From Synechococcus sp. (GTDB taxonomy: Bacteria; Cyanobacteriota; Cyanobacteriia; Thermostichales; PCC-7336): a stretch of 29,163 bases of DNA. This document shows, piece by piece, positions 2,838 to 13,423 of the stretch (within the stretch, counting starts at the first letter, position 1; each line of letters opens with the position of its first letter). The notes beneath the pieces were generated by a model. The model was not told the DNA's origin. It saw only the letters and a program-made list of their open reading frames with translations, and ran no database searches. The position numbers and the translations under genes are program-made. The stretch is taken from assembly GCA_051439605.1 (NCBI GenBank), contig JBFRWN010000143.1, forward strand, positions 1-29,163, written 5' to 3'.

Positions 2838-2901
2838 CTCGGTCGTGGAAACCAAATTAGATGTTCGTTAAACCTGTAAACCAGCTCGTACGGAAATTTG
2901 C

Positions 2902-3681
2902 ATGGCTGTAATTGGAGAAGACAGTGCTCGGGTTGCGCTAGTGGTGGGGGCCAGTCGCGGCATAGGCTTGGAATTCGTGCGGCAATTGCTGACGATCCCG
3001 CAATTTGAGACGGTGTGGGCCACCTACCGCACGCGAGAATCGGCAACAGGACTCTTGGAGATGGCCCAGTCAGACATGGCTGAAGGAGATCGCCTGCAGT
3101 GCCTGTCGATGGATGTCACTGACGAAGGACAAATTGCTTCGGGGTTAGTCGAAATTAAACAACAGACCAAGCACCTGCACCTCGTCGTGAATTGCGTCGG
3201 TATCTTGCACGACGACACAATGCGTCCCGAGAAAGGTCTGCGCCAACTGGAGATGGAGCAACTGACCCGATATTTCCAAACCAACAGCATCCCCTCGGCG
3301 CTGCTCGCCAAACATCTTCTACCCCTGCTGAAGCACAGAGATCGCAGCGTCTTCGCCAGCATCTCGGCCAAAGTCGGTAGCATTGGCGATAACTTTTTAG
3401 GGGGATGGTATGGCTATCGAGCCTCGAAAGCTGCGCTGAATATGTTGATGCGCACGGCAGCGATCGAATACCGCCGCAAAAGCCCTGAAACCATTATCGT
3501 TACTCTCCACCCCGGCACCACCGACACCGATTTATCCAAACCGTTTCAAAGCAATGTCCCTCCCGAAAAGCTCTTTTCCACCGAGCGGACCGTCTCGCAG
3601 TTACTCGATGTCATTTCTGGATTGGAGTTGGAAGACAGCGGCCAGTTTTTCAATTGGGACGGTCAACCTTTGCCTTGGTAG
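2902..3681 (+). CDS. Short-chain dehydrogenase/reductase, C-factor (CsgA)-like
   Basis: GASRGIG nucleotide-binding motif, SAKVGSIGDN.LGGWYGYRASKAALN (YxxxK), LHPGTTDT.LS.PF, and C-terminal F.NWDG..LPW. Confidence 0.92.
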   Translation: MAVIGEDSARVALVVGASRGIGLEFVRQLLTIPQFETVWATYRTRESATGLLEMAQSDMAEGDRLQCLSMDVTDEGQIASGLVEIKQQTKHLHLVVNCVGILHDDTMRPEKGLRQLEMEQLTRYFQTNSIPSALLAKHLLPLLKHRDRSVFASISAKVGSIGDNFLGGWYGYRASKAALNMLMRTAAIEYRRKSPETIIVTLHPGTTDTDLSKPFQSNVPPEKLFSTERTVSQLLDVISGLELEDSGQFFNWDGQPLPW

Positions 3682-3683
3682 CT

Positions 3684-3737
3684 ATGCGGGCTTTCTTCTT
3701 ATGCGGGCTCTCTGATGCGGGCTCTTTGATGAGAGCT
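3684..3737. repeat. Short imperfect tandem repeat ATGCGGGCT between convergent genes
   Basis: Copies at 3684, 3701 and 3715, plus a degenerate ATGAGAGCT at 3729. Confidence 0.6.
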
Positions 3738-4579
3738 TAAGCAGGCTTGAGACGGTCTAAATCCAACTGCATGCTATCGACGACGGTGGCGTAGCATTCT
3801 TCGACGTAATCGCGATCGCGAGCGGCGTCGGGACCGTAGCGATCGAACGTAATGGGGGCGCAAACCCGAGTCAAGATTTGAGAAGGGACGGGTAAGTGGG
3901 GTAGAGGCCCGAAGGCTAAGCCCCACGGCAGGCCGAGATAGATGGGAAATACTTCTGGATCGACGCCAAACATCCAGGGGAGCAAACCGCGTTCGTTGAG
4001 AAATTGCATTTGTTTGTAGCAATCCTCCAGGACGATGAAGGTGTCGTGAGCCCCCCAAGAAATAATCGGAATAATAGGGACTTCTTCTCGGAGAGCGACT
4101 TTGATAAAGCCCATCTGCCTGGCTAGATGAATGCGTTGGCGCATTCGATGAGGGCGAAACATATCTCGTGCCCCTCCCGGATACACCAGTACACTTCCTC
4201 CCTGCTGCAGGGCGGAAAAAGCCATTTTGGGATGTGCTTGCACTGCCCCCAACCTGGAAGCGAGTTCCGCCATCGGTCGGGCTACCTGCCAGACTTTAGG
4301 GTGCATCAAGCCGTAGATCGCCCGCTCGAAACCAAACCGTTGAAACCAGTCCACCATAAACATGGGCAAATCGGGACTGGCGATGCCGCCATTGTGGGAT
4401 CCCACGAACAGAACTCGCTCTTGAGAGTCGGTGGGAATGTTTTCCCAACCATCCGACTGAACCCGGAAGTAATAGCGATAAAGCCATTTCCACACCGGCA
4501 TCCACGTTTGGATTGTTTTTGGATCGCGGGCCTCTAGAGACCAGCCACCAAAGGGATTTGTGCGTTGCGAAGCTGCCAT
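3737..4579 (-). CDS. Lysophospholipid/DGAT2-like acyltransferase family protein
   Basis: VGSHNGG..SPD, VLVYPGG..D, GFIKVAL...VPIIP motifs; ATG at 4579 preferred over TTG at 4672. Confidence 0.85.
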   Translation of the reverse strand: MAASQRTNPFGGWSLEARDPKTIQTWMPVWKWLYRYYFRVQSDGWENIPTDSQERVLFVGSHNGGIASPDLPMFMVDWFQRFGFERAIYGLMHPKVWQVARPMAELASRLGAVQAHPKMAFSALQQGGSVLVYPGGARDMFRPHRMRQRIHLARQMGFIKVALREEVPIIPIISWGAHDTFIVLEDCYKQMQFLNERGLLPWMFGVDPEVFPIYLGLPWGLAFGPLPHLPVPSQILTRVCAPITFDRYGPDAARDRDYVEECYATVVDSMQLDLDRLKPA

Positions 4580-4945
4580 GCGAAGAAATATGAAGAAATG
4601 CTTAAGATTTATCCTAGCGCAGCAATCCTGCTCATAGGCATTTGTTTTATAGCTAGCGAGTAGAACCCACAAACGGATGGATTCATCAATGTAGTGTTTT
4701 CTCTTACAGTGCGCTGTGATGGAAAGACCCGATCCTATTCAGATGCCGGGTCTAGAGACCTTAGGATGGTTGCACTTTTTTGAAGCGTCACTACCCATCC
4801 ATGCCAAATATTGAACTATCCCAGATAAAAGGTACGTTACCAATAATGATGGTGAGCGAGCATCATCGAGGATTCGTAGAGTGTTCAACAAACTCCGCAA
4901 CTACCATCCCATCGAGATCGGAACTTTTAGTTTGAGAAACTAAGT

Positions 4946-5608
4946 CTACAGGAGCCCTCTATATCTGATGAACAATAAAATCGCAGCCCACGACCCCAGC
5001 GTCACTTTAATGGCAACCAGAATATTTAACAGTGGAATCCAGCCTCCGCTCGCTAAGTTTCCGAGTTCTCCATGCGGTAATGCAAGACCCGATAGACTGA
5101 GCAAGGCAAAGAGTATGAAGACCAGTACCGATACTTTTTCCAATGTGGCAGCGTGCCACCGTTTGTAGATCGCCTGCATCCACTTGGATGAAGAGGTAAT
5201 CGCAATCAAACCAATTGCAGTACCGCCGGCAACACCTGCCGCAAATCCACCTCCCGGACTCAGATGGCCGCGAATTGCCAGTTCGATACCAATTAATGCA
5301 GCAATCGTAGCCCCCAAGCGGGCAAGGACAATCGAGGGGTGATCGTTAAATTGGTAGACCGTACCGTGGGGTTCTTCGTCAGCCAGCAAGTAGCTCACTC
5401 CCATAATGGAAATCGAAAACACCACCACCTCGAAAATGGTGTCGTAGAGTCGATTTCGAAAAATAATTCCCGAGACGGCATTAGACACCCCCGACTCTTG
5501 CACGATCGCCTCCACAACCCCCATGCCATCAAATTCAATTCCGAAATCGGAAATGACCACCATTTTAATGTAGAAGACAATTCCAGCCAGAATGTAAACC
5601 CATTTCAT
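4946..5608 (-). CDS. mrpB: Mrp/Mnh Na+/H+ antiporter subunit B
   Basis: NAVSGIIFRNRLYDTIFE and RGHLSPGGGFAAG motifs; last gene of an overlapping operon. Confidence 0.9.
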   Translation of the reverse strand: MKWVYILAGIVFYIKMVVISDFGIEFDGMGVVEAIVQESGVSNAVSGIIFRNRLYDTIFEVVVFSISIMGVSYLLADEEPHGTVYQFNDHPSIVLARLGATIAALIGIELAIRGHLSPGGGFAAGVAGGTAIGLIAITSSSKWMQAIYKRWHAATLEKVSVLVFILFALLSLSGLALPHGELGNLASGGWIPLLNILVAIKVTLGSWAAILLFIRYRGLL

Positions 5609-6252
5609 GATTGCTGTTCGACCTTGCTAGCTTCCGATTTATTAACTGTGGGGCGATCGCCATTAGCGGAATAAATGTCCGCAAGTAGTACTTGGGGTTT
5701 CTCTAATTGAGTTTCGAGAATGTCGTAGAGGCGAGGAACGCGAGTTTGAAACTGATATCTCAGCGGCGTACGATCGGAGAACTCTTCAGAATGAGATAAC
5801 TCGTCAGCATGTGGGGACAGAATGGCGTGCACTTCCTTCGTACTCAACGCTCGCTTTAGATCGCTAGCATCTGCATAGTAGACAGGCTCCAAGCGCATGT
5901 GGTGCTGGCTACACAGCTCCCGAATTTCCGCGATCGGCGATGGTGATAATTTCTTGTGCCCGTTGGTATCTGCGAACGCGGTTTCGTCCGCCTGACGCAC
6001 TCCCACCTTGATGCTCATCGACGATCGCACCGCGATCGCGTACAGAGTAATCGACAGCATGGTGCCTACCAATGCCTCCGTCAGAGCCACATCAGCAGCC
6101 CCCAACAAGGCATAGACTAGGGCAGCGATCGCCCCCACAATCCCGCGAATAACCAATGCCTGATAGGGATTGACCTGCAGCACCAACATGAGCGATGACA
6201 GGGGCAGCAACGCCACAATCGGAATCATGACAAACAAATCATTCACGAGCAT
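5605..6252 (-). CDS. DUF4040-domain Mrp-associated subunit (MnhB-related)
   Basis: LGAADVALTEALVG motif, hydrophobic N-terminal half, ATGA coupling to mrpB. Confidence 0.85.
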   Translation of the reverse strand: MLVNDLFVMIPIVALLPLSSLMLVLQVNPYQALVIRGIVGAIAALVYALLGAADVALTEALVGTMLSITLYAIAVRSSMSIKVGVRQADETAFADTNGHKKLSPSPIAEIRELCSQHHMRLEPVYYADASDLKRALSTKEVHAILSPHADELSHSEEFSDRTPLRYQFQTRVPRLYDILETQLEKPQVLLADIYSANGDRPTVNKSEASKVEQQS

Positions 6253-6520
6253 TGCCTCCAGAGGAGCAATAAGCCAATACGTAGCCTAAAACGGTATTCC
6301 AAATCGACAGAGAAACTAACGCCAGCAATAGCAGCGGCCATTCCCTAGGAATCTTGAGAAGCAGACCAACTACAACCAGCATCGAGCCCAACGTATCTGA
6401 AATCGACAGAAAGTGCAGTTTGTACAAAATCGACCGCTCCCCCAACAGCGGAACCGTTCCGTACATCCAAAACACTAGTCCAACGGCAATGCAAGACAAA
6501 CTCAAGTAATTCACAATCAT
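6239..6520 (-). CDS. mrpG: Mrp/Mnh subunit G
   Basis: KLH.LS.SDTLGS motif, three hydrophobic segments, operon position. Confidence 0.85.
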   Translation of the reverse strand: MIVNYLSLSCIAVGLVFWMYGTVPLLGERSILYKLHFLSISDTLGSMLVVVGLLLKIPREWPLLLLALVSLSIWNTVLGYVLAYCSSGGNARE

Positions 6521-6765
6521 GCGTTAACCCTCCGAATGATATGGGCTAACAGCATTAACGCCGCATTACCAACACTTAAAATCAACACCCCCACCACCCC
6601 AATCATCCAGTCATCGCGCAAAATTGAAACCAATAAAATCATGATGGATGTCTTGCTGGAAATACTGGAAAATGCCAGCATCCGCTGCCAAATATCCTCA
6701 TCTTGATACGCCTTAAACATCGGAATCAAGAGGATGGCAAACATGACGAGTAAAGCCCAGCTCAT
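6517..6765 (-). CDS. mrpF: Mrp/Mnh subunit F
   Basis: 82-aa protein with three hydrophobic segments (WQRMLAF), between E and G with overlapping start/stop codons. Confidence 0.75.
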   Translation of the reverse strand: MSWALLVMFAILLIPMFKAYQDEDIWQRMLAFSSISSKTSIMILLVSILRDDWMIGVVGVLILSVGNAALMLLAHIIRRVNA

Positions 6766-7151
6766 TAACCCTCATCCTCCTTTATTTGATGGACTTCGTA
6801 CCAGCCATCATTGTGGTATTTCAGCACAATTGTTTTTGGGGTAAACGTAATAATAAAGATATCTAGAAAGATTAATCCAGGAGTTCGCCTGGGCCTCACC
6901 CGTTGCAGCACAATGTCCTCATGCTTGTGAGGCTGGAACATGATTACAAGTGTCTCCCAATATGCTTGAGGAACGGCGATCGCAACTTCGTATAGGGCTC
7001 TCAGCCAGTCTTTGAGTTTTGAGGAAGCAGCAAAGCCAGTTGGAATCAGTAAAGTGACGGTGATGCCGATGATGATATTGGCCAAACTGACATCTGCCGT
7101 GAGTAGAAACCAAATGGCAATCCGGAGCAGGTAGTTGAGATATTTAATCAT
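6765..7151 (-). CDS. mrpE: Mrp/Mnh subunit E
   Basis: IWFLLT...S.ANI.IG and ITFTPKT motifs; ATG at 7151 overlaps the mrpD stop (ATGA). Confidence 0.85.
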   Translation of the reverse strand: MIKYLNYLLRIAIWFLLTADVSLANIIIGITVTLLIPTGFAASSKLKDWLRALYEVAIAVPQAYWETLVIMFQPHKHEDIVLQRVRPRRTPGLIFLDIFIITFTPKTIVLKYHNDGWYEVHQIKEDEG

Positions 7152-8590
7152 GCCAACACCATCCAAAAGAGCAACGTTAACATCAGGCTCATGCCCCCAA
7201 TCAGATGGTCAAGTTGTTCTAAAATCCTCGGCAGTTTGACTGCGGCTCGCTGGAAAATCAAAATGTATGCTAGCCAGCCTAAGGCAATAGTTGCCAGCGG
7301 CTTTACAGTATTAGCCAGGGTATATGCTTCGTAATACACCACATTGGCGGCAAACAATCCACCAAGTAACAGAATAATTGCTGCCCAAAAACCAGGCTTA
7401 ACTGACCCTTCACCCCCACGAGGTAGAAAGATAAATTTAGCAAACGAAATGGCAGTTCCCAAGGCTGCAAAATTCATCCCAATCACTTGCCAGGGCAGTA
7501 AATTTTTCATAGTTAAGACCTTTGCCCCAAACCCCGATAACAGAGGGAAGCCTGAAATGGAGAAGCTAGCAGTAACCAGAGCAATCCAGATTGGCGTTGC
7601 AATCGGTATTTGTTTGAGTGCTTTTAGATTGCGACTGGGAAGATTCCCGGCAATTAGAAACAAAGCCGATTTCACAAAGCCGTGGGTTAAAGCATAAAAG
7701 CCGCCAACTTCTGGAGCGGCCATTACAAAACCCAACTGGGACACAGTGTGAAATGCCAACATACGCTTAGTGTCTTTTTCGAAGACCGCGTAGCCAACAC
7801 CCAATAGTGCTGTCCCCACCCCAAAAAAACGGACGATAGGATCGATCTCTTCCACCATTAGCGCAAATCGCGCCAACGGGAAAACACCCGCTTTAACTAC
7901 TGCTCCCGATAGCATGGCCGAGACGGGAGTATCCGATTCAGAATGGGTTAAAGGCAACCATAATCCCGAAAAAAAGATACCTCCCTTGGTTAGAAGCCCC
8001 AGAAAAATGAGCGCGATCGCTTCAATCGGTGCTCCTTGTAACCCTGAGAAGGCAAAGGTTTGACTTGACTGATAGACCAGAATTGCTCCCACTAGGTAAA
8101 ACAGCATGGCCGTATTGCTAATAAACAAATATCTCAGCCCTACCCAGATGGACTGGTCGGTTCTGACATAGGTAATTAGCAAAAATGCCGCAATGGCGAC
8201 CACTTCTAGGGCGACATAGAGGCTGATGAAATCAGAACATACAAACACCGCGTTGCAGCTGCCATGCAAGATGATGGTTTGCATGTAAAAGAAAATCGTT
8301 TTTTGGCTGGGCCAGCAGTACAGCAATACCGCGAGCGTAACAATCGCATTGGTGAGAATGAAAAAGCCGCTGAGGGAGTCCAACGTAACGGTGACCCCAA
8401 AGCTATCGATCGGCTGAAAGGTTAGAGCATCCGAGCTAATCGCTGCGGTAACCCCCACAGCAAAAGACGACAGAGCAACGACCATCGCCAACATGCGATG
8501 GGTCTGAGGAATCAGATAGACTCCAAATCCGACCAAGAACGGTAGGAAGATCCATATATTGAGAATTTCAACATTGAGGATTTCAGTCAT
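7148..8590 (-). CDS. mrpD: Mrp/Mnh subunit D (NdhD5-like antiporter subunit)
   Basis: DFISLYVALE, LWLP.TH, SAMLSG.VVK.G, KRMLAFHTVSQLG and HG..K..LF motifs of proton-translocating antiporter subunits. Confidence 0.9.
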   Translation of the reverse strand: MTEILNVEILNIWIFLPFLVGFGVYLIPQTHRMLAMVVALSSFAVGVTAAISSDALTFQPIDSFGVTVTLDSLSGFFILTNAIVTLAVLLYCWPSQKTIFFYMQTIILHGSCNAVFVCSDFISLYVALEVVAIAAFLLITYVRTDQSIWVGLRYLFISNTAMLFYLVGAILVYQSSQTFAFSGLQGAPIEAIALIFLGLLTKGGIFFSGLWLPLTHSESDTPVSAMLSGAVVKAGVFPLARFALMVEEIDPIVRFFGVGTALLGVGYAVFEKDTKRMLAFHTVSQLGFVMAAPEVGGFYALTHGFVKSALFLIAGNLPSRNLKALKQIPIATPIWIALVTASFSISGFPLLSGFGAKVLTMKNLLPWQVIGMNFAALGTAISFAKFIFLPRGGEGSVKPGFWAAIILLLGGLFAANVVYYEAYTLANTVKPLATIALGWLAYILIFQRAAVKLPRILEQLDHLIGGMSLMLTLLFWMVLA

Positions 8591-8928
8591 TAGGAATATC
8601 GTTTTTCGATGGCCTCGGTCTCTAAGGTGGGATTATCTTTTGACAGCTTCATGACTCCCACCAGCATCAATGCCTGAATCGAAAACCCAATCACAATTGC
8701 GGTCAGAATAACGGCTTGGGGAACTGGGTCCGCGTAGGCAACAGTCCTACCGGCGGTAAAGATGGGGGTGAATAAGCCGCTTCTGGCTGAAATTAAAACA
8801 AATAGAGCAACAACGCCGGTACTCATGACGTCCATAGATATGATTTTCATGATCAGGTTTTTCTTAATCAACACCCCCAAAAATCCAATCAAAATTGTCA
8901 TTAGCACCAGAGATTTAAGAAGTATCAT
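8590..8928 (-). CDS. mrpC: Mrp/Mnh subunit C
   Basis: KKNL.MKI.SMD and DPVPQAVILTAIVIGF signature; alternative ATG at 8958. Confidence 0.92.
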   Translation of the reverse strand: MILLKSLVLMTILIGFLGVLIKKNLIMKIISMDVMSTGVVALFVLISARSGLFTPIFTAGRTVAYADPVPQAVILTAIVIGFSIQALMLVGVMKLSKDNPTLETEAIEKRYS

Positions 8929-9200
8929 TTCATCAATCCATGGTGAGACAGCAAACATCCAGTGTATAAGATTTGATATCGCGTCATTTGAATTCGGTCT
9001 AATTCCCCGTTACGTATTTCTCAATTAAGCATTCAGGTGTCTAGTGGTCTTTTACAATAGCAAACCGCTGTAAGGTCGAGAGTGACAGAAAGGCTCCAGC
9101 TCTTGCATGGCAAGGAAACAAAGTCTAGAAAACTGCCTAGCGGTTTGCCCACTGCCACGAACATATGAGAAAAGATAATACCTCTAAATTGAATAAGCAA

Positions 9201-9263: not shown

Positions 9264-10961
9264 CTAGACTCTCGCCAATGTTCTAAGCCCGTCGCCCTTA
9301 AGCGATCGCTGGCTGACAATGCTAACAGCTCTACGAAGGGCTTCAGTGCGTCTTGAAACTTGATTCTCAGACGGCACGAACTTCAAAACACCGAGTTTTT
9401 CCAAACGGCGCTGTACTGACCCAGATGCACCGACAATGAAAACCTCTAAGCCCATCTCGATCGCCTGCTCGATGGTATTTTCAATCGCCAGGGAAGAGGT
9501 AACACCCATCATGGGAACGTCACTCAAATCAACTACTAAAACGTCTTTGCCTTCTAACGCGGACTGTTCTCGTTCAATCGCCTTAGCAACTCCAAAGATC
9601 ATGGGTCCATCCAGATGAAATAACAAGATGCGATTGTTTCCATGCCTCAACAGACGATTCTCTTCTTCGCTCAGGATGATTTCGTCGTCAGCATCCGAAA
9701 TAGCGCTGAAGGACTTCACCCGCAGCTCTGTCAGTCGTTCGATGGTCAGTACGTTTGCAACAAATACCCCTAATGCAACTGCAGTTATCAAGTCTCCAAA
9801 TACCGTGACTCCGATTGTGCTGTAGGTGATGGCGGCAGCCTTGGGGGAAACGATCAAAGAACGCTTCAAGAAACTCCAATCGACAATATCGATACCCACT
9901 TTGATGGCAATTCCGGCAAGGACGGCTCTGGGAATGGCTGCTGTGGCACCGGAGGCTAGTAAAACAACGGCTAGCAAAATGACTGCGCGAATCAAGCCCG
10001 ACAATACAGTACGCCCGCCCGTTTGGATGTTAACCACGGTCCCCATCGTGGCACCAGCACCTGGCAATCCACCAAACAGTCCGGATACGATGTTACCGAT
10101 ACCTTGTCCAATCAGTTCTTTGTTGGAATTGTGTTGGGTACGTGTCAAGCTATCTGCAACCACAGATGTCAGCAAGGAATCAATACAACCCAGCATCCCG
10201 AGAACAACTGAATCGAACAAAATGACTCGCGCTTGGGCAAACGTGAATGTTGGAACGGTTAATTGGGGAATGCCAACTTCAAACGCTCCAATTCGATTAA
10301 TGTCCATCCCTTGAAATGCCAATAGCGATAGCCCTGTGGCAATTATCAATGCGAGAAGCTGGGGAGGGGCGAGCTTCTTTAACTTGCGTGGAGTCAGAAA
10401 TAAAATCGCGATGGTGGTGGCCCCGAGAATAAATTCGGGAGCGTTGAAGGATCGTACAATCTCCGGCCAGGTTTGAATGGCCCCAAACACCCCCCCCGAA
10501 GCATTCTCAAACCCGAATAATGGTGCTAGCTGCAGAACAATGAGGAGAAAGCCGATGCCGGACATAAACCCAGAGATCACTGAGTAAGGCATCAGAGTGA
10601 CGTACTTTCCCAATCTGAGAGTCCCGAACGCGATTTGGAATACGCCAGCTAGCATGACTACGGTAAATGCCATGGCCATGCCGTTCTCAGGATCGGCGGC
10701 CACTAGCGACGACACAACGGCAGTCATGACAACTGTCATCGGACCAGTTGGCTCGGATATCAGAGTTGGCGTTCCTCCGAAAAGCGAGGCAAAAAAACCA
10801 ATCAATATGGCACCGTACAAGCCGGCAGCGGGTCCTGCACCTGAAGCGACGCCAAAAGCCAGCGCCATCGGCAAGGAAACAATCGCGGCCGCTAGACCGC
10901 CAAACAGATCGCCTCTAAAATTATTGAAGTGTATTCGATTGACAAAGCGAAAAGCATTCAT
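9264..10961 (-). CDS. bicA: SulP-family Na+-dependent bicarbonate transporter BicA
   Basis: N-terminus NRIHF.N.RGDLFGG, ISEPTGPMT, LGCIDSLLTSVVAD, GAGATMGTVVNI and a C-terminal STAS domain; Mrp operon downstream and CcmR-type box upstream. Confidence 0.88.
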   Translation of the reverse strand: MNAFRFVNRIHFNNFRGDLFGGLAAAIVSLPMALAFGVASGAGPAAGLYGAILIGFFASLFGGTPTLISEPTGPMTVVMTAVVSSLVAADPENGMAMAFTVVMLAGVFQIAFGTLRLGKYVTLMPYSVISGFMSGIGFLLIVLQLAPLFGFENASGGVFGAIQTWPEIVRSFNAPEFILGATTIAILFLTPRKLKKLAPPQLLALIIATGLSLLAFQGMDINRIGAFEVGIPQLTVPTFTFAQARVILFDSVVLGMLGCIDSLLTSVVADSLTRTQHNSNKELIGQGIGNIVSGLFGGLPGAGATMGTVVNIQTGGRTVLSGLIRAVILLAVVLLASGATAAIPRAVLAGIAIKVGIDIVDWSFLKRSLIVSPKAAAITYSTIGVTVFGDLITAVALGVFVANVLTIERLTELRVKSFSAISDADDEIILSEEENRLLRHGNNRILLFHLDGPMIFGVAKAIEREQSALEGKDVLVVDLSDVPMMGVTSSLAIENTIEQAIEMGLEVFIVGASGSVQRRLEKLGVLKFVPSENQVSRRTEALRRAVSIVSQRSLKGDGLRTLARV

Positions 10962-11030
10962 CGTCCTAGCATCCCCTTCATAGATTTTTCACTGTCCTCA
11001 CCACGCAGAATCAGAAATACTATGCAATAT

Positions 11031-11046
11031 ATAGATTTATATCTAT
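11031..11046. promoter_or_regulatory. CcmR/NdhR-type LysR operator ATAG-N8-CTAT
   Basis: ATAG-ATTTATAT-CTAT, 70 nt upstream of the bicA ATG. A one-mismatch copy (ATAG-N8-CTGT) lies at 10980-10995. Confidence 0.75.
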
Positions 11047-11752
11047 GGATGCATTAAATATTATTTTAAGGATTCTATGAATGGATACTAGCATTAACTA
11101 AAGAAATTGTGAACATGCACTAATTAGTTCTTCTTAAGGCCTTGAAAAGTCATGCTTACTGTCTAGCTAGCTCTATAACGAGATAGGTATGTGGTGACCT
11201 AAGTCGAGGGATCGCCCCCCGATTGAGTTTGTCGGGTACTGCGGAATCTTCGGGATCTTTTCTCACGTGCATCTGTAGATCGAGTTCTTTGCTCGATCGG
11301 TTCCTCTATCGTTCGTTCTGATACTGTAGTGGATTTTCGGTTGCTTGCCTTGAAATCATTGCTCGCTGCATGTTGGACATCCCCAGTTTTGGGCATCAAC
11401 CACTGGGTATTGCTCTTTGTCCTGATTCGAGTCAGTTTTACCTTAGACAATCTGTCAATACCGATCGCAATCTTTTAAGAGAGTCTCATTTTGTGACGCC
11501 ATACTTTTGACTTTGACATAACGTTCGATGGAAATAGCAAGTCGCTGAACCAGAAAGTCAGTCACGGTCTATCTCCATCGATCTATCCAAATTATTCGAA
11601 AGTAACGTCCCCTGTTATGCATTTGTTTTGTGACTCGGAATTGGAAGTCACGAACGGATTGAGTCGAACGCCTATTGACGTTCTTGAAGTTTTTTCTCTC
11701 GGCACGCAAATCTGATCCCTCTCAAACCTCTTGGTCCCAAGCTGGTCTCTCA

Positions 11753-13423
11753 TTAAAACAACTTCAGCTGAACTGAGCTGGCATGGTTGTCTTGAAGATT
11801 GTCGATCTGATTGAGGGACTTTGGGCGAAATCCCGGTTTCCGAGGCTTGATATCGAGATGGGCTACAAACCAAGTTCGCAGAGACTTGACCTGTTGCGGT
11901 CTTAACGTATCTAAGTCGAGATGGGGGGGGAATAAATCGAGCTCGGTAGTCTCTGCCCATTCAACGTCGCAGGAGTGCCGGTCAGCACCGAACGGTGTCA
12001 GCGATTCAGGCATTGGTGCTAAATGGGGCAACACGTTGCTTTGATTCAGGAAAGTTTGCCGTACTTTATCCAACTGACGGACCCGGCGTTGACGAACATT
12101 TTTATAATCCAGAATTGGCTTCGGATAATTCCCGAGCTTCGGAGGAAGCCCCAATTTTTCCGCAGGCAGGTGAGCCACTTCTGGCACCCACTGGCGAATG
12201 AAGGAGCCCTCCGGGTCGCAGCGATCGACGGCTAGTTGTTGTGGGTTGTAAATGCGCGTCCAAGTTTTGTTAATGCAGTGGGTCACCCCCGCCTGCATTG
12301 CCCACTGATAGTGATCGATGGGACAGTCGCCATCGATCAGGTGACGCATAAAGTGCAAGGCACCGTAGCGCCAATCCATACCCAGCAAGTTTGTCAGAAA
12401 ACTGGCATAGATGGCACGGCCTCGAAAGTTCAGCTGTTTCCAGCCTCCTGTCGCCTGCAGGCAACGGGCAGCAGCATCGATGAGGGGAAATCCTGTCTGA
12501 CCGTCCTGCCATGCCCGATATAGATTCTCGTTAAATGTCCACCCTTCCCGATCGAAGATGCTGTAAAGCGATCGCACCTCCAGTTGAGGTAGATAGCGGA
12601 ACCGTTGGGCGAAGCCACTCCCCCACCTCAGTCGAGAGATGAATTGCTTGCGGCTGCGCTGGATTCTTCGGTCGGTAGCATTCTCCAAGGTTTGCTGCGC
12701 TGTTTGATAGCATTCACGAACGGAGATTGCACCAAACTTGATGTAAGGGCTGAGACCGGAGGTGGCCTCAGCTCCCGGATAAGAGAGTTGCCAGTAGTAG
12801 CGATCGGTTTTTTCAGCTAGAAACTCCTGCAATAACTGCCGCGCGGGCTCGCTCCCTCCAGGGGGAATTGGCTTACCATCGGGTACAAGCCCCAGATCGG
12901 TGAGTGTTGGAATGGGCTGGCTTAATACGGCCAGGGGAACTGAAATGGTAGAAGGCGCAGGGATAAGGGGTTCCCGCATCTGGGTATACCAAAGTTTTCG
13001 ATAGTCGGGATAGGGAACCAGTTCGGGGGTTGTACCCGGAGGTTCAAACCAGCGAATCTTCATGCCCTCTTTCGCTAATGCTTGATTGAGTTTTGCATCG
13101 CGCACTCGCCCATAAATCCGTTCGAAGTCGATGTAGGAATAGATTCCCTCGGCCTTTATTTCTTTGACTAAGTTGGGTAAAACCGTTGCCGGATCGCCAT
13201 AGCGAACGATCAAACGGCCGCCACGATCGCTCAGAGCCCGATCGAGCGATCTCAGACAGTCCAGCATAAATGCCACGCGGGCAACTGCAGTTTCGGGGTG
13301 AAACAGCAAAGCCCGATCCAACACAAATACGGGAACAACGGTTCCCCGTCGTGCAGCACGATACAGGGGCCCGTGATCGAAAATCCGCAAGTCTCGCCGA
13401 AACCAGACAACTGTGCAATTCAT
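11753..13423 (-). CDS. Photolyase/cryptochrome family flavoprotein, atypical
   Basis: VWFRRDLR..D, TSGLSPY.KFG.IS, W..GQTGFP.IDAA.R.L..TG, LIDGD, RIYNP and DP.G.FIR.WVPE motifs. Confidence 0.93.
   Translation of the reverse strand: MNCTVVWFRRDLRIFDHGPLYRAARRGTVVPVFVLDRALLFHPETAVARVAFMLDCLRSLDRALSDRGGRLIVRYGDPATVLPNLVKEIKAEGIYSYIDFERIYGRVRDAKLNQALAKEGMKIRWFEPPGTTPELVPYPDYRKLWYTQMREPLIPAPSTISVPLAVLSQPIPTLTDLGLVPDGKPIPPGGSEPARQLLQEFLAEKTDRYYWQLSYPGAEATSGLSPYIKFGAISVRECYQTAQQTLENATDRRIQRSRKQFISRLRWGSGFAQRFRYLPQLEVRSLYSIFDREGWTFNENLYRAWQDGQTGFPLIDAAARCLQATGGWKQLNFRGRAIYASFLTNLLGMDWRYGALHFMRHLIDGDCPIDHYQWAMQAGVTHCINKTWTRIYNPQQLAVDRCDPEGSFIRQWVPEVAHLPAEKLGLPPKLGNYPKPILDYKNVRQRRVRQLDKVRQTFLNQSNVLPHLAPMPESLTPFGADRHSCDVEWAETTELDLFPPHLDLDTLRPQQVKSLRTWFVAHLDIKPRKPGFRPKSLNQIDNLQDNHASSVQLKLF

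Follow-up and report, generated by a model that had tools for sequence, protein, structure and literature searches.

We have found that a gene in a 29,163-nucleotide stretch of Synechococcus sp. DNA (positions 1 to 29,163 of contig JBFRWN010000143.1, assembly GCA_051439605.1; the whole stretch is referred to here as the window) encodes a protein that matches the NewCRY subfamily of the photolyase/cryptochrome superfamily, both in the clade to which it belongs and in its loss of the residues corresponding to E274 and N341 of E. coli photolyase (EcE274 and EcN341). The gene occupies 11753..13423 on the minus strand, as do all of its features given below, runs from ATG to TAA, and specifies 556 amino acids and a stop. 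A preliminary description had put it forward as a candidate blue-light receptor carrying the Asp of plant cryptochromes at atom N5 of its flavin adenine dinucleotide (FAD). Our own reading, which we hold tentatively and at a little under an even chance, is of a NewCRY protein with a photolyase fold that is tethered to the replication clamp (the β-clamp, DnaN) through the C-terminal pentapeptide QLKLF and acts on damaged DNA in a light-dependent manner, rather than serving as a signalling photoreceptor of the plant type.

A member of the NewCRY subfamily

The protein has the canonical domain order of the superfamily, with an N-terminal α/β (antenna-type) photolyase domain (PF00875, residues 4-124, 13052..13414, E 3.6e-30) followed by a helical FAD-binding domain (PF03441, residues 261-451, 12071..12643, E 8.8e-47), both far above the Pfam cut-off. 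We judge the ATG start to be right because the N terminus, MN.T.VWFRRDLR, is common to all 18 aligned homologs. An AlphaFold2 model built from a 56-sequence alignment predicts a photolyase fold (predicted local distance difference test, pLDDT, 89.8; predicted template modelling score, pTM, 0.89), the antenna-type domain reaching pLDDT 92-98. Its top Foldseek matches are structures of the class I photolyase of A. nidulans (1qnf, 1owm and 1owl; target-normalised template modelling score 0.86-0.87, 28-30% identity), and the best sequence matches among solved structures are likewise the A. nidulans/S. elongatus class I photolyases 1owl and 1tez (E about 1e-60, best 7e-61).

Every NCBIfam photolyase or cryptochrome model matches the protein, each far under its curated cut-off: TIGR03556 (8-hydroxy-5-deazaflavin, 8-HDF, class I) scores 253 against 884.6 bits, NF007955 (E. 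coli type) 178.5 against 506, TIGR02766 (plant cryptochrome) 161.4 against 603.85 and TIGR02765 (DASH) 154.1 against 317.05. None of 14 relatives reached a curated cut-off either, and thus no NCBIfam model names this clade. An exhaustive phmmer search returned 10561 relatives at E <= 0.001, with identity falling to about 35% beyond a few close representatives. When the full-length hits were aligned with MAFFT, Arg at the site of the lesion-contacting Glu, Phe at the Asn site, Ala at the Met site and Met at 376 proved common to a large group; R264 and F333 do not vary among 56 members of the clade, and R334 and R336 are likewise invariant in NewCRY. The altered lesion pocket that had first drawn attention to the protein is therefore real in its substitutions, but it is a hallmark of the whole subfamily and not private to this protein.

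The subfamily was named by Emmerich et al. 2020 (Nucleic Acids Research, NAR) from a sequence-similarity network with edges at E < 1e-70. According to Emmerich et al. 2020, NewCRY accounts for 8% of the sequences in a superfamily survey, occurs in bacteria and haloarchaea only, was formerly annotated as cyclobutane pyrimidine dimer (CPD) photolyases, lacks EcE274 and EcN341, which are named there as lesion contacts, and has the FAD-binding VcCry2 as its representative. In the literature that we searched, the term itself is used in one relevant paper. Table S2 of Haney et al. 2022 labels V. cholerae cry2, Npun_AR235 and picocyanobacterial phr1 as NewCRY.

Typing by motif took in 147 sequences and showed that the residue at the N5 site varies within the subfamily among His, Asn and Asp. 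The His type (H-type; D[YF]EPGIH..Q.QMQ), in which the position of W374 is not Trp in nearly all rows, accounted for 65 of the 147, the Asp type for 15, nine of them the cyanobacterial clade of this protein, and the Asn type for six; four more were unclassified, all within the NewCRY clade in the tree described below. The class I-like rows comprised 54 with Asn, two with Asp and one that the pattern had mislabelled. We note that P0189 and P0204, class I-like representatives that carry the full GGWQW motif, have Asp in place of Asn next to N5 (..ASDNGGWQW and ..ANDNGGWQW), and that in most NewCRY proteins the His at this site (D[YF]EPGIH[YWF]xQxQMQ) is accompanied by Glu in place of the second FAD-binding Asp and, nearly always, by the lack of a proximal Trp. 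We found no discussion of this His-type flavin environment in the NewCRY literature, as far as the parts available to us go. Asp at the N5 site also occurs in seven other representatives (P0126, P0127, P0130, P0133, P0150, P0188 and P0236), the cluster records of P0130 being named Anaerolineae bacterium and Roseilinea.

A family phylogeny, which the preliminary description had proposed as a check, was computed for 75 rows (IQ-TREE, LG+G4, quick search), with the DASH paralog from the same genome as the root. The rows were a chosen subset; they comprised all non-H members of the clade, the first 22 H-type and the first 24 class I-like sequences, and included no plant sequence. The protein falls in a 48-row NewCRY clade (Shimodaira-Hasegawa-like approximate likelihood ratio, SH-aLRT, 99), apart from 26 class I-like rows, and within it in a 9-row cyanobacterial clade with support of 100, although the tree does not settle how the subclades branch from one another. 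A kinship with plant cryptochromes finds no support in this placement in a bacterial clade or in the TIGR02766 score, and so the Asp is most simply convergent with that of the plant proteins.

Two named NewCRY proteins could be related to this clade. The published phr1 primer has an exact match in only one record of the genome collection, L011, where a 509-residue open reading frame (ORF; L011:1498-3027, plus strand) is of the H-type and falls in the H-type clade, and thus in the same 48-row clade as the protein studied here. The L011 contig is titled as a metagenome-assembled genome (MAG) of Salipiger bermudensis; its picocyanobacterial-type phr1 matches the Synechococcus RS9916 primer exactly, its other long ORFs read by eye, in translation, like cyanobacterial housekeeping genes, and the contig looks mis-binned in an alphaproteobacterial MAG. 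Npun_AR235, on plasmid pNPUN01 of Nostoc punctiforme (L046:4010-5560, plus strand), shares the NewCRY motifs and is of the Asp type (YLVDGDLAIDNWQWQMQAG); it was outside the tree. Asp at the N5 site is thus present in at least two cyanobacterial NewCRY lineages. The plasmid is typed as conjugative, the gene adjoins an IS4 transposase, and relatives of our query occur in 165 plasmid records at E <= 1e-30.

Three other groups were considered for the protein and set aside. The PhrSph98-like bifunctional clade (Fernandez et al. 2022) is another family, being class II-like and having Asn next to N5; NewPHL proteins have an N-terminal FAD domain followed by a Z-domain and no antenna domain, as against the canonical order here; and Phr8 of Haney et al. 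is a DASH protein.

A clamp-type motif at the C terminus

The tail of ~100 residues reported earlier is confirmed: 105 residues follow the Pfam FAD domain, and about 70 of them are predicted by AlphaFold2 to be ordered. The model is confident to about residue 520, so that residues 452-520 (11864..12070) make up a predicted ordered extension, which carries an LRTWFVAH motif, has no Pfam match, and lies in a region with predicted helices at 440-458, 488-491 and 509-519. Beyond it the model predicts disorder (residues 523-556), with a basic, poorly conserved linker at residues 521-551 (11771..11863; pLDDT blocks of 50, 53 and 43) that ends in QLKLF (residues 552-556, 11756..11770) at the extreme C terminus. 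In the 18-sequence alignment the mean majority fraction is 0.71 over residues 452-520, drops to 0.40 over the linker, and rises to 0.83 over QLKLF. A search of the ESM Atlas with the tail gave a best score of 0.83, below the meaningful level.

The consensus for binding the bacterial β-clamp is QL(S/D)LF, and it is located C-terminally (PMC9690074). QLKLF matches this consensus and stands at the terminus of a flexible segment. A motif of the form Q[LM]xL[LFW] occurs within the last 15 residues of 109 of the 120 closest homologs, 90 of which have it no more than one residue from the end, and the remaining 11 have near-variants such as QFTLF and QLSLI. Among other NewCRY representatives a penta- or hexapeptide form is found in the last 15 residues of 25 of 81, and these motif-bearing rows include H-, N- and D-types; the class I-like count is 0 of 55. 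The background rate in protein bodies, 0.0027 per 15-residue window, leads one to expect about 0.2 chance matches in 81. The Phr1-type protein of L011 ends in QLQLEL. The conserved clamp-type motif points to work on DNA, and it predicts that the workplace of the protein would be clamp-loaded DNA.

Within the genome itself, seven of 3903 ORFs of at least 150 amino acids have a clamp-type C terminus. Two besides the protein studied here are a PD-(D/E)XK nuclease and a DUF72 protein, and the other four look unrelated or spurious. Either of the two may be a further clamp partner: the DUF72 protein (contig C17, minus strand, 332 aa) ends in QLSLF, and the nuclease, which is Cas4-like (contig C43, plus strand, 264 aa), ends in QLQLTLGF. 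The Y-family polymerase of the genome, taken as a control for the motif, has no C-terminal motif and is uninformative.

We also predicted the complex of residues 500-556 with the organism's own DnaN. The prediction scored 0.57 (runs 0.56-0.58), the best of three controls scoring 0.00; at least 51% of contacts recur between runs, and the pLDDT of the partner is at least 39. Of 157 solved complexes 116 reach the mark used for such predictions, as do two of 215 mismatched pairs; scores of 0.60 or under account for only 18 of the 157 and for both of the mismatches that pass. Clamp-peptide complexes have been solved, and for this reason the pass may stem from resemblance to structures already known. 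Our literature search found no paper linking a photolyase homolog to the clamp, and a 2024 review of the β-clamp does not contain the word 'photolyase'.

Residues around the flavin and the lesion pocket

The residues from 362 to 376, LIDGDCPIDHYQWAM (12296..12340), hold the FAD-binding Asp pair D364/D366, I369, D370, W374 and M376. The earlier assignment of D370 (GAT, 12314-12316) to the site of E. coli N378 held in every alignment that we made. D370 lies opposite N386 of A. nidulans in HMMER pairwise alignments to 1owl/1tez and opposite the N5-proximal Asn in those to S. tokodaii 2e0i and E. coli 1dnp, where the facing residue is the first N of LAANNGGWQW; the same placement was obtained from a MAFFT alignment of 146 sequences and from a profile-profile alignment by hhalign, in which 56 clade members were set against 40 class I-like proteins. 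The string DGDCPIDHYQWAMQ is exact in 118 of the 120 best homologs, the exceptions to an exact match being P0013 and P0097, and the context of D370 is not due to chance. Site 377 is I369, and Ile is found there in at least 90% of 56 clade members. The plant residue corresponding to D370 is D396 of Arabidopsis CRY1.

In E. coli photolyase Asn378 touches flavin N5, plant cryptochromes have Asp there, and Ile at site 377 reduces the stability of FADH- in three photolyases (PMC9356274). Because I369 occupies the site at which Ile destabilises FADH-, the pocket with D370 and I369 reads as cryptochrome-like, as had been proposed. The protein is predicted to bind FAD, and the phosphate-binding TSGLS, the D364/D366 pair and R336 are all kept. 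G268 (GGG, 12620..12622), which takes the place of R287, one of the FAD contacts listed for the A. nidulans enzyme, is Gly in the cyanobacterial Asp clade, and nearly all other NewCRY rows have Arg or His there in the MAFFT alignment.

The substitutions reported for the CPD pocket (E274 to R, N341 to F and M345 to A in E. coli numbering) were recovered. E283, N349 and M353 of A. nidulans, the equivalents of E. coli E274, N341 and M345, face R264 (CGA, 12632..12634), F333 and A337 by HMMER pairwise alignment, MAFFT and hhalign alike, the last two residues bounding the segment F333-R334-G335-R336-A337 (12413..12427). The stacking Trp is kept, as W267.

For the Trp triad and for the fourth reported substitution, W384 to M, the outcome was mixed. 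W314, W367 and W390 of A. nidulans face W295 (distal, 12539..12541), W351 (middle, 12371..12373) and W374 (12302-12304) in the HMMER pairwise alignment, which bears out the triad as described; W295 is invariant in 18 close homologs and Ser in two picocyanobacterial-type relatives. After H371 the alignment becomes ambiguous. Three alignments run on without a gap (hhalign, MAFFT and the pairwise one to A. nidulans), and in these W374 corresponds to E. coli W382 and M376 (12296-12298) to W384, whereas those made by HMMER to E. coli and S. tokodaii place a two-residue gap past H371, so that Y372 corresponds to W382 and W374 to W384. The identity of the proximal Trp and the change of W384 to Met therefore depend on the alignment. 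An invariant Q373 and a WQW pattern in some relatives favour the gap; the helix that the model predicts as continuous over 367-377, together with the profile comparison, favours the ungapped version.

Distribution and genomic setting

The 120 best homologs are 520-566 amino acids long and 67-88% identical to the protein, and those with named sources belong to thin filamentous cyanobacteria, among them Thermoleptolyngbya, Kovacikia, Stenomitos, Oculatellaceae and Elainellaceae. In the source records they are annotated as 'deoxyribodipyrimidine photo-lyase'. Of 300 other genomes sampled evenly across the phylum, six have an ortholog (E <= 1e-100); five are 67-71% identical, and the sixth, in a 2.4-Mb genome, is 52% identical. 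The genome studied here (99.98% complete) encodes four members of the superfamily, namely a class I enzyme, a DASH protein, an FeS-BCP and the protein described here, and the presence of the other three suggests a separate job for it. The Cry-DASH and FeS-BCP (PF04244) genes adjoin on opposite strands (contig C115, about 2877-5200) and are a possible photolyase gene pair.

The gene had been ascribed to an island, and of this we see no sign. The composition of the window is even, scans of the window found neither tRNAs nor Rfam elements, the neighbours are of a housekeeping kind, and there is no synteny across the six orthologous loci, which share no neighbour within about 1.5 kb. Neighbouring genes in the window encode an Mrp antiporter, a SulP/STAS protein, DoxX, a Clp-type AAA+ ATPase, a sigma-70 factor and ferrochelatase. 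The subunit genes of the Mrp-type Na+/H+ antiporter (MnhB, MbhD, MnhE, proton antiporter M and 4L-like) lie at 4946-8958 on the minus strand and are followed by the SulP/STAS transporter gene at 9264-10961. Between its start and the stop of our gene is a gap of ~790 bases (10962-11752) without a convincing ORF or an Rfam match. Promoter and terminator scans stayed at the level of shuffled sequence (4 against 3.7 and 4 against 2.8). A single 232-base metatranscriptome contig covers 12097-12324 with four differences and leaves the rest of the gene uncovered; it may be DNA carry-over and does not demonstrate transcription.

Possible work on damaged DNA or signalling by light

In the reading that we favour, light would drive electron transfer along W374-W351-W295, and D370 at N5 together with I369 at site 377 would favour oxidised or semiquinone flavin over stable FADH-. 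The disordered basic linker would present QLKLF to the hydrophobic cleft of DnaN, docking would concentrate the protein on newly replicated or gapped DNA, and the lesion that it would process at such clamp-loaded sites would be of the UV type but not the canonical CPD of duplex DNA. We propose a substrate other than the CPD because W267 is kept but three residues by which a CPD is held (Glu, Asn and Met) are replaced. A relative studied by experiment is Phr1. Disruption of phr1 in marine Synechococcus lowers survival of ultraviolet C (UV-C) 6-fold, and phr1 in E. coli lexA3 Δphr raises it 10-20-fold, a protection that is 5-20 times less without white light (PMC9426592). Tethering through the clamp-type motif could also account for the light-dependent UV-C protection that this relative confers on E. 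coli.

Several observations weigh against this reading. FADH- is the state that all known photolyases need (PMC9356274), and D370 with I369 predicts that it would be poorly stable here; two residues by which a CPD is held, the Glu and the Asn, are also missing from the pocket. Taken together, the flavin pocket and the lost CPD contacts argue against repair by the standard FADH- cycle. The experiments concern Phr1, an H-type protein with His at N5 and the proximal Trp lost, and not the Asp clade, and since the primer-matched sequence is H-type the phr1 phenotypes transfer only loosely to that clade; Phr1 moreover had no effect under UV-B (PMC9426592), and the link from L011 to strain RS9916 is one 27-base primer match in a record titled Salipiger. 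The clamp motif is short, is absent from the last 15 residues of 56 of the 81 other NewCRY representatives, and is missing from the C terminus of Npun_AR235, which is of the Asp type. The complex prediction of DnaN with the tail was rated 'weak support' only, and we found no DNA-repair genes among the neighbours in the window or at the six orthologous loci.

It is possible that the protein is instead a soluble blue-light signalling cryptochrome, in which oxidised FAD would be photoreduced to the FADH radical with D370 as proton donor, the extension would alter its conformation and bind an effector, and QLxL[LF] would be a peptide for binding that effector and have nothing to do with the clamp. 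We consider this unlikely, although the pocket with its Asp and Ile is cryptochrome-like, the triad is intact and the C-terminal extension is conserved and partly ordered, as cryptochromes have it; three photolyases in the genome already cover repair, and Emmerich et al. 2020 judged only light-dependent signalling feasible for NewCRY, whose CPD contacts are lost. A V. cholerae cry1 cry2 phr triple knockout, which includes the NewCRY cry2, nevertheless retained its blue-light transcriptome (PMC5241685), and protection of E. coli by Phr1 is hard to explain through a cyanobacterial partner. No conserved neighbour at the six orthologous loci hints at such a partner, and the C-terminal motif matches that of a DNA-replication hub, is enriched across NewCRY and is lacking from the class I-like proteins. 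The blue-light receptor of the preliminary description thus keeps its cryptochrome-like pocket, with the triple mutant, the Phr1 data and the clamp motif standing against it. A light-gated clamp ligand would unite that pocket with the motif: photoreduction to a radical flavin would free the extension and expose QLKLF for competition at the cleft of the clamp, and the protein, without carrying out repair itself, would tune replication, gap filling or translesion synthesis to exposure to light or UV, with the replisome as its output. Some cryptochromes have light-released tails, which an ordered extension followed by a flexible tail resembles. In Drosophila CRY the C-terminal tail is released on illumination, according to the abstract of the study. 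We see no sign, however, that the motif is masked in the dark; in the model it lies in a disordered segment. The Phr1 data fit repair more simply, and we regard this purely inferential scheme as quite improbable.

Two further explanations would make the protein a conventional enzyme. The preliminary description had itself remarked on motifs resembling those of a clade of single-stranded DNA (ssDNA) photolyases, and a DASH-like enzyme repairing CPDs in ssDNA would accord with Tardu et al., who term both V. cholerae cryptochromes ssDNA photolyases, and with the likeness of NFRGRA to the DASH segment SNRGRQ. That remark did point toward NewCRY, given the status of VcCry2, but the motifs of the genome's true DASH protein differ: it keeps the CPD-binding Glu and Asn that are gone here, where Asp also replaces Asn at site 378. 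With the TIGR02765 score well under its cut-off, and with NewCRY kept apart from DASH by Emmerich et al. and Haney et al., we find such an enzyme very unlikely. To an ordinary class I CPD photolyase, the name under which most database records carry the protein, we give scarcely any credence. The annotations name a photolyase, and class I enzymes give the best matches in structure and in sequence, yet the TIGR03556 and NF007955 cut-offs are missed like every other, five active-site positions are changed by ungapped alignment, and a canonical class I enzyme is already encoded in the genome; the reading is contradicted by the sequence. We keep a small share of probability for explanations outside all of these.

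The subfamily, then, is a named one, and in the literature that we found no biochemical function is known for it. We found no earlier report of an Asp-type cyanobacterial clade with an ordered extension or of a recurrent C-terminal clamp-type motif, although Table S1 of Emmerich et al. may list the clade. With a plant-cryptochrome Asp and an intact Trp triad, the cyanobacterial clade offers a natural bacterial system for the tuning of flavin redox chemistry at the N5 site. Should the protein prove to bind the clamp, it would be, as far as our literature search shows, the first member of the photolyase family to be wired to it; if the motif were in addition gated by light, replication would be coupled directly to light. 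Across the subfamily, a C-terminal clamp hook would be a recurrent and so far unnoticed property of NewCRY as a whole.

Comparison with known systems

Measured against the class I photolyase of A. nidulans, the protein keeps seven of 13 listed FAD contacts (Y, T, S, L, S, D and D) and changes five (W280F, R287G, N349F, A385I and N386D), T346 lying beside a gap; the Glu and Met that contact the lesion are replaced, and the C-terminal motif has no counterpart among the class I-like proteins. Cry-DASH, of which the genome has a separate paralog on contig C115, differs in having Asn at N5 and the pocket Glu and Asn where this protein has D370, R264 and F333. With the plant cryptochromes (Arabidopsis CRY1 and CRY2) the protein shares the N5-site Asp, the intact Trp triad and a C-terminal extension past the photolyase homology region, but it belongs to a bacterial clade, scores far under the plant cut-off, and has a tail without similarity to known domains and with a clamp-type end. 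In the literature that we found, no photolyase homolog is named as a partner of the clamp, and binding here is a prediction; bacterial clamp-binding proteins nonetheless have the same kind of pentapeptide, QLKLF or QLSLL, at the extreme C terminus past a flexible linker. The closest likeness is to NewCRY proteins such as VcCry2 and the Phr1 of marine Synechococcus, which have the same two-domain order, the same loss of EcE274 and EcN341 and the same history of annotation as CPD photolyases. In the parts of Emmerich et al. and Haney et al. available to us we found no mention of variation at the N5 site or of a clamp motif. Where NewCRY proteins mostly have His at N5 and no proximal Trp, this clade has Asp, a full triad and Gly at the A. 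nidulans R287 site, and to the architecture of NewCRY at large it adds a predicted ordered extension of ~70 residues before the linker and the motif.

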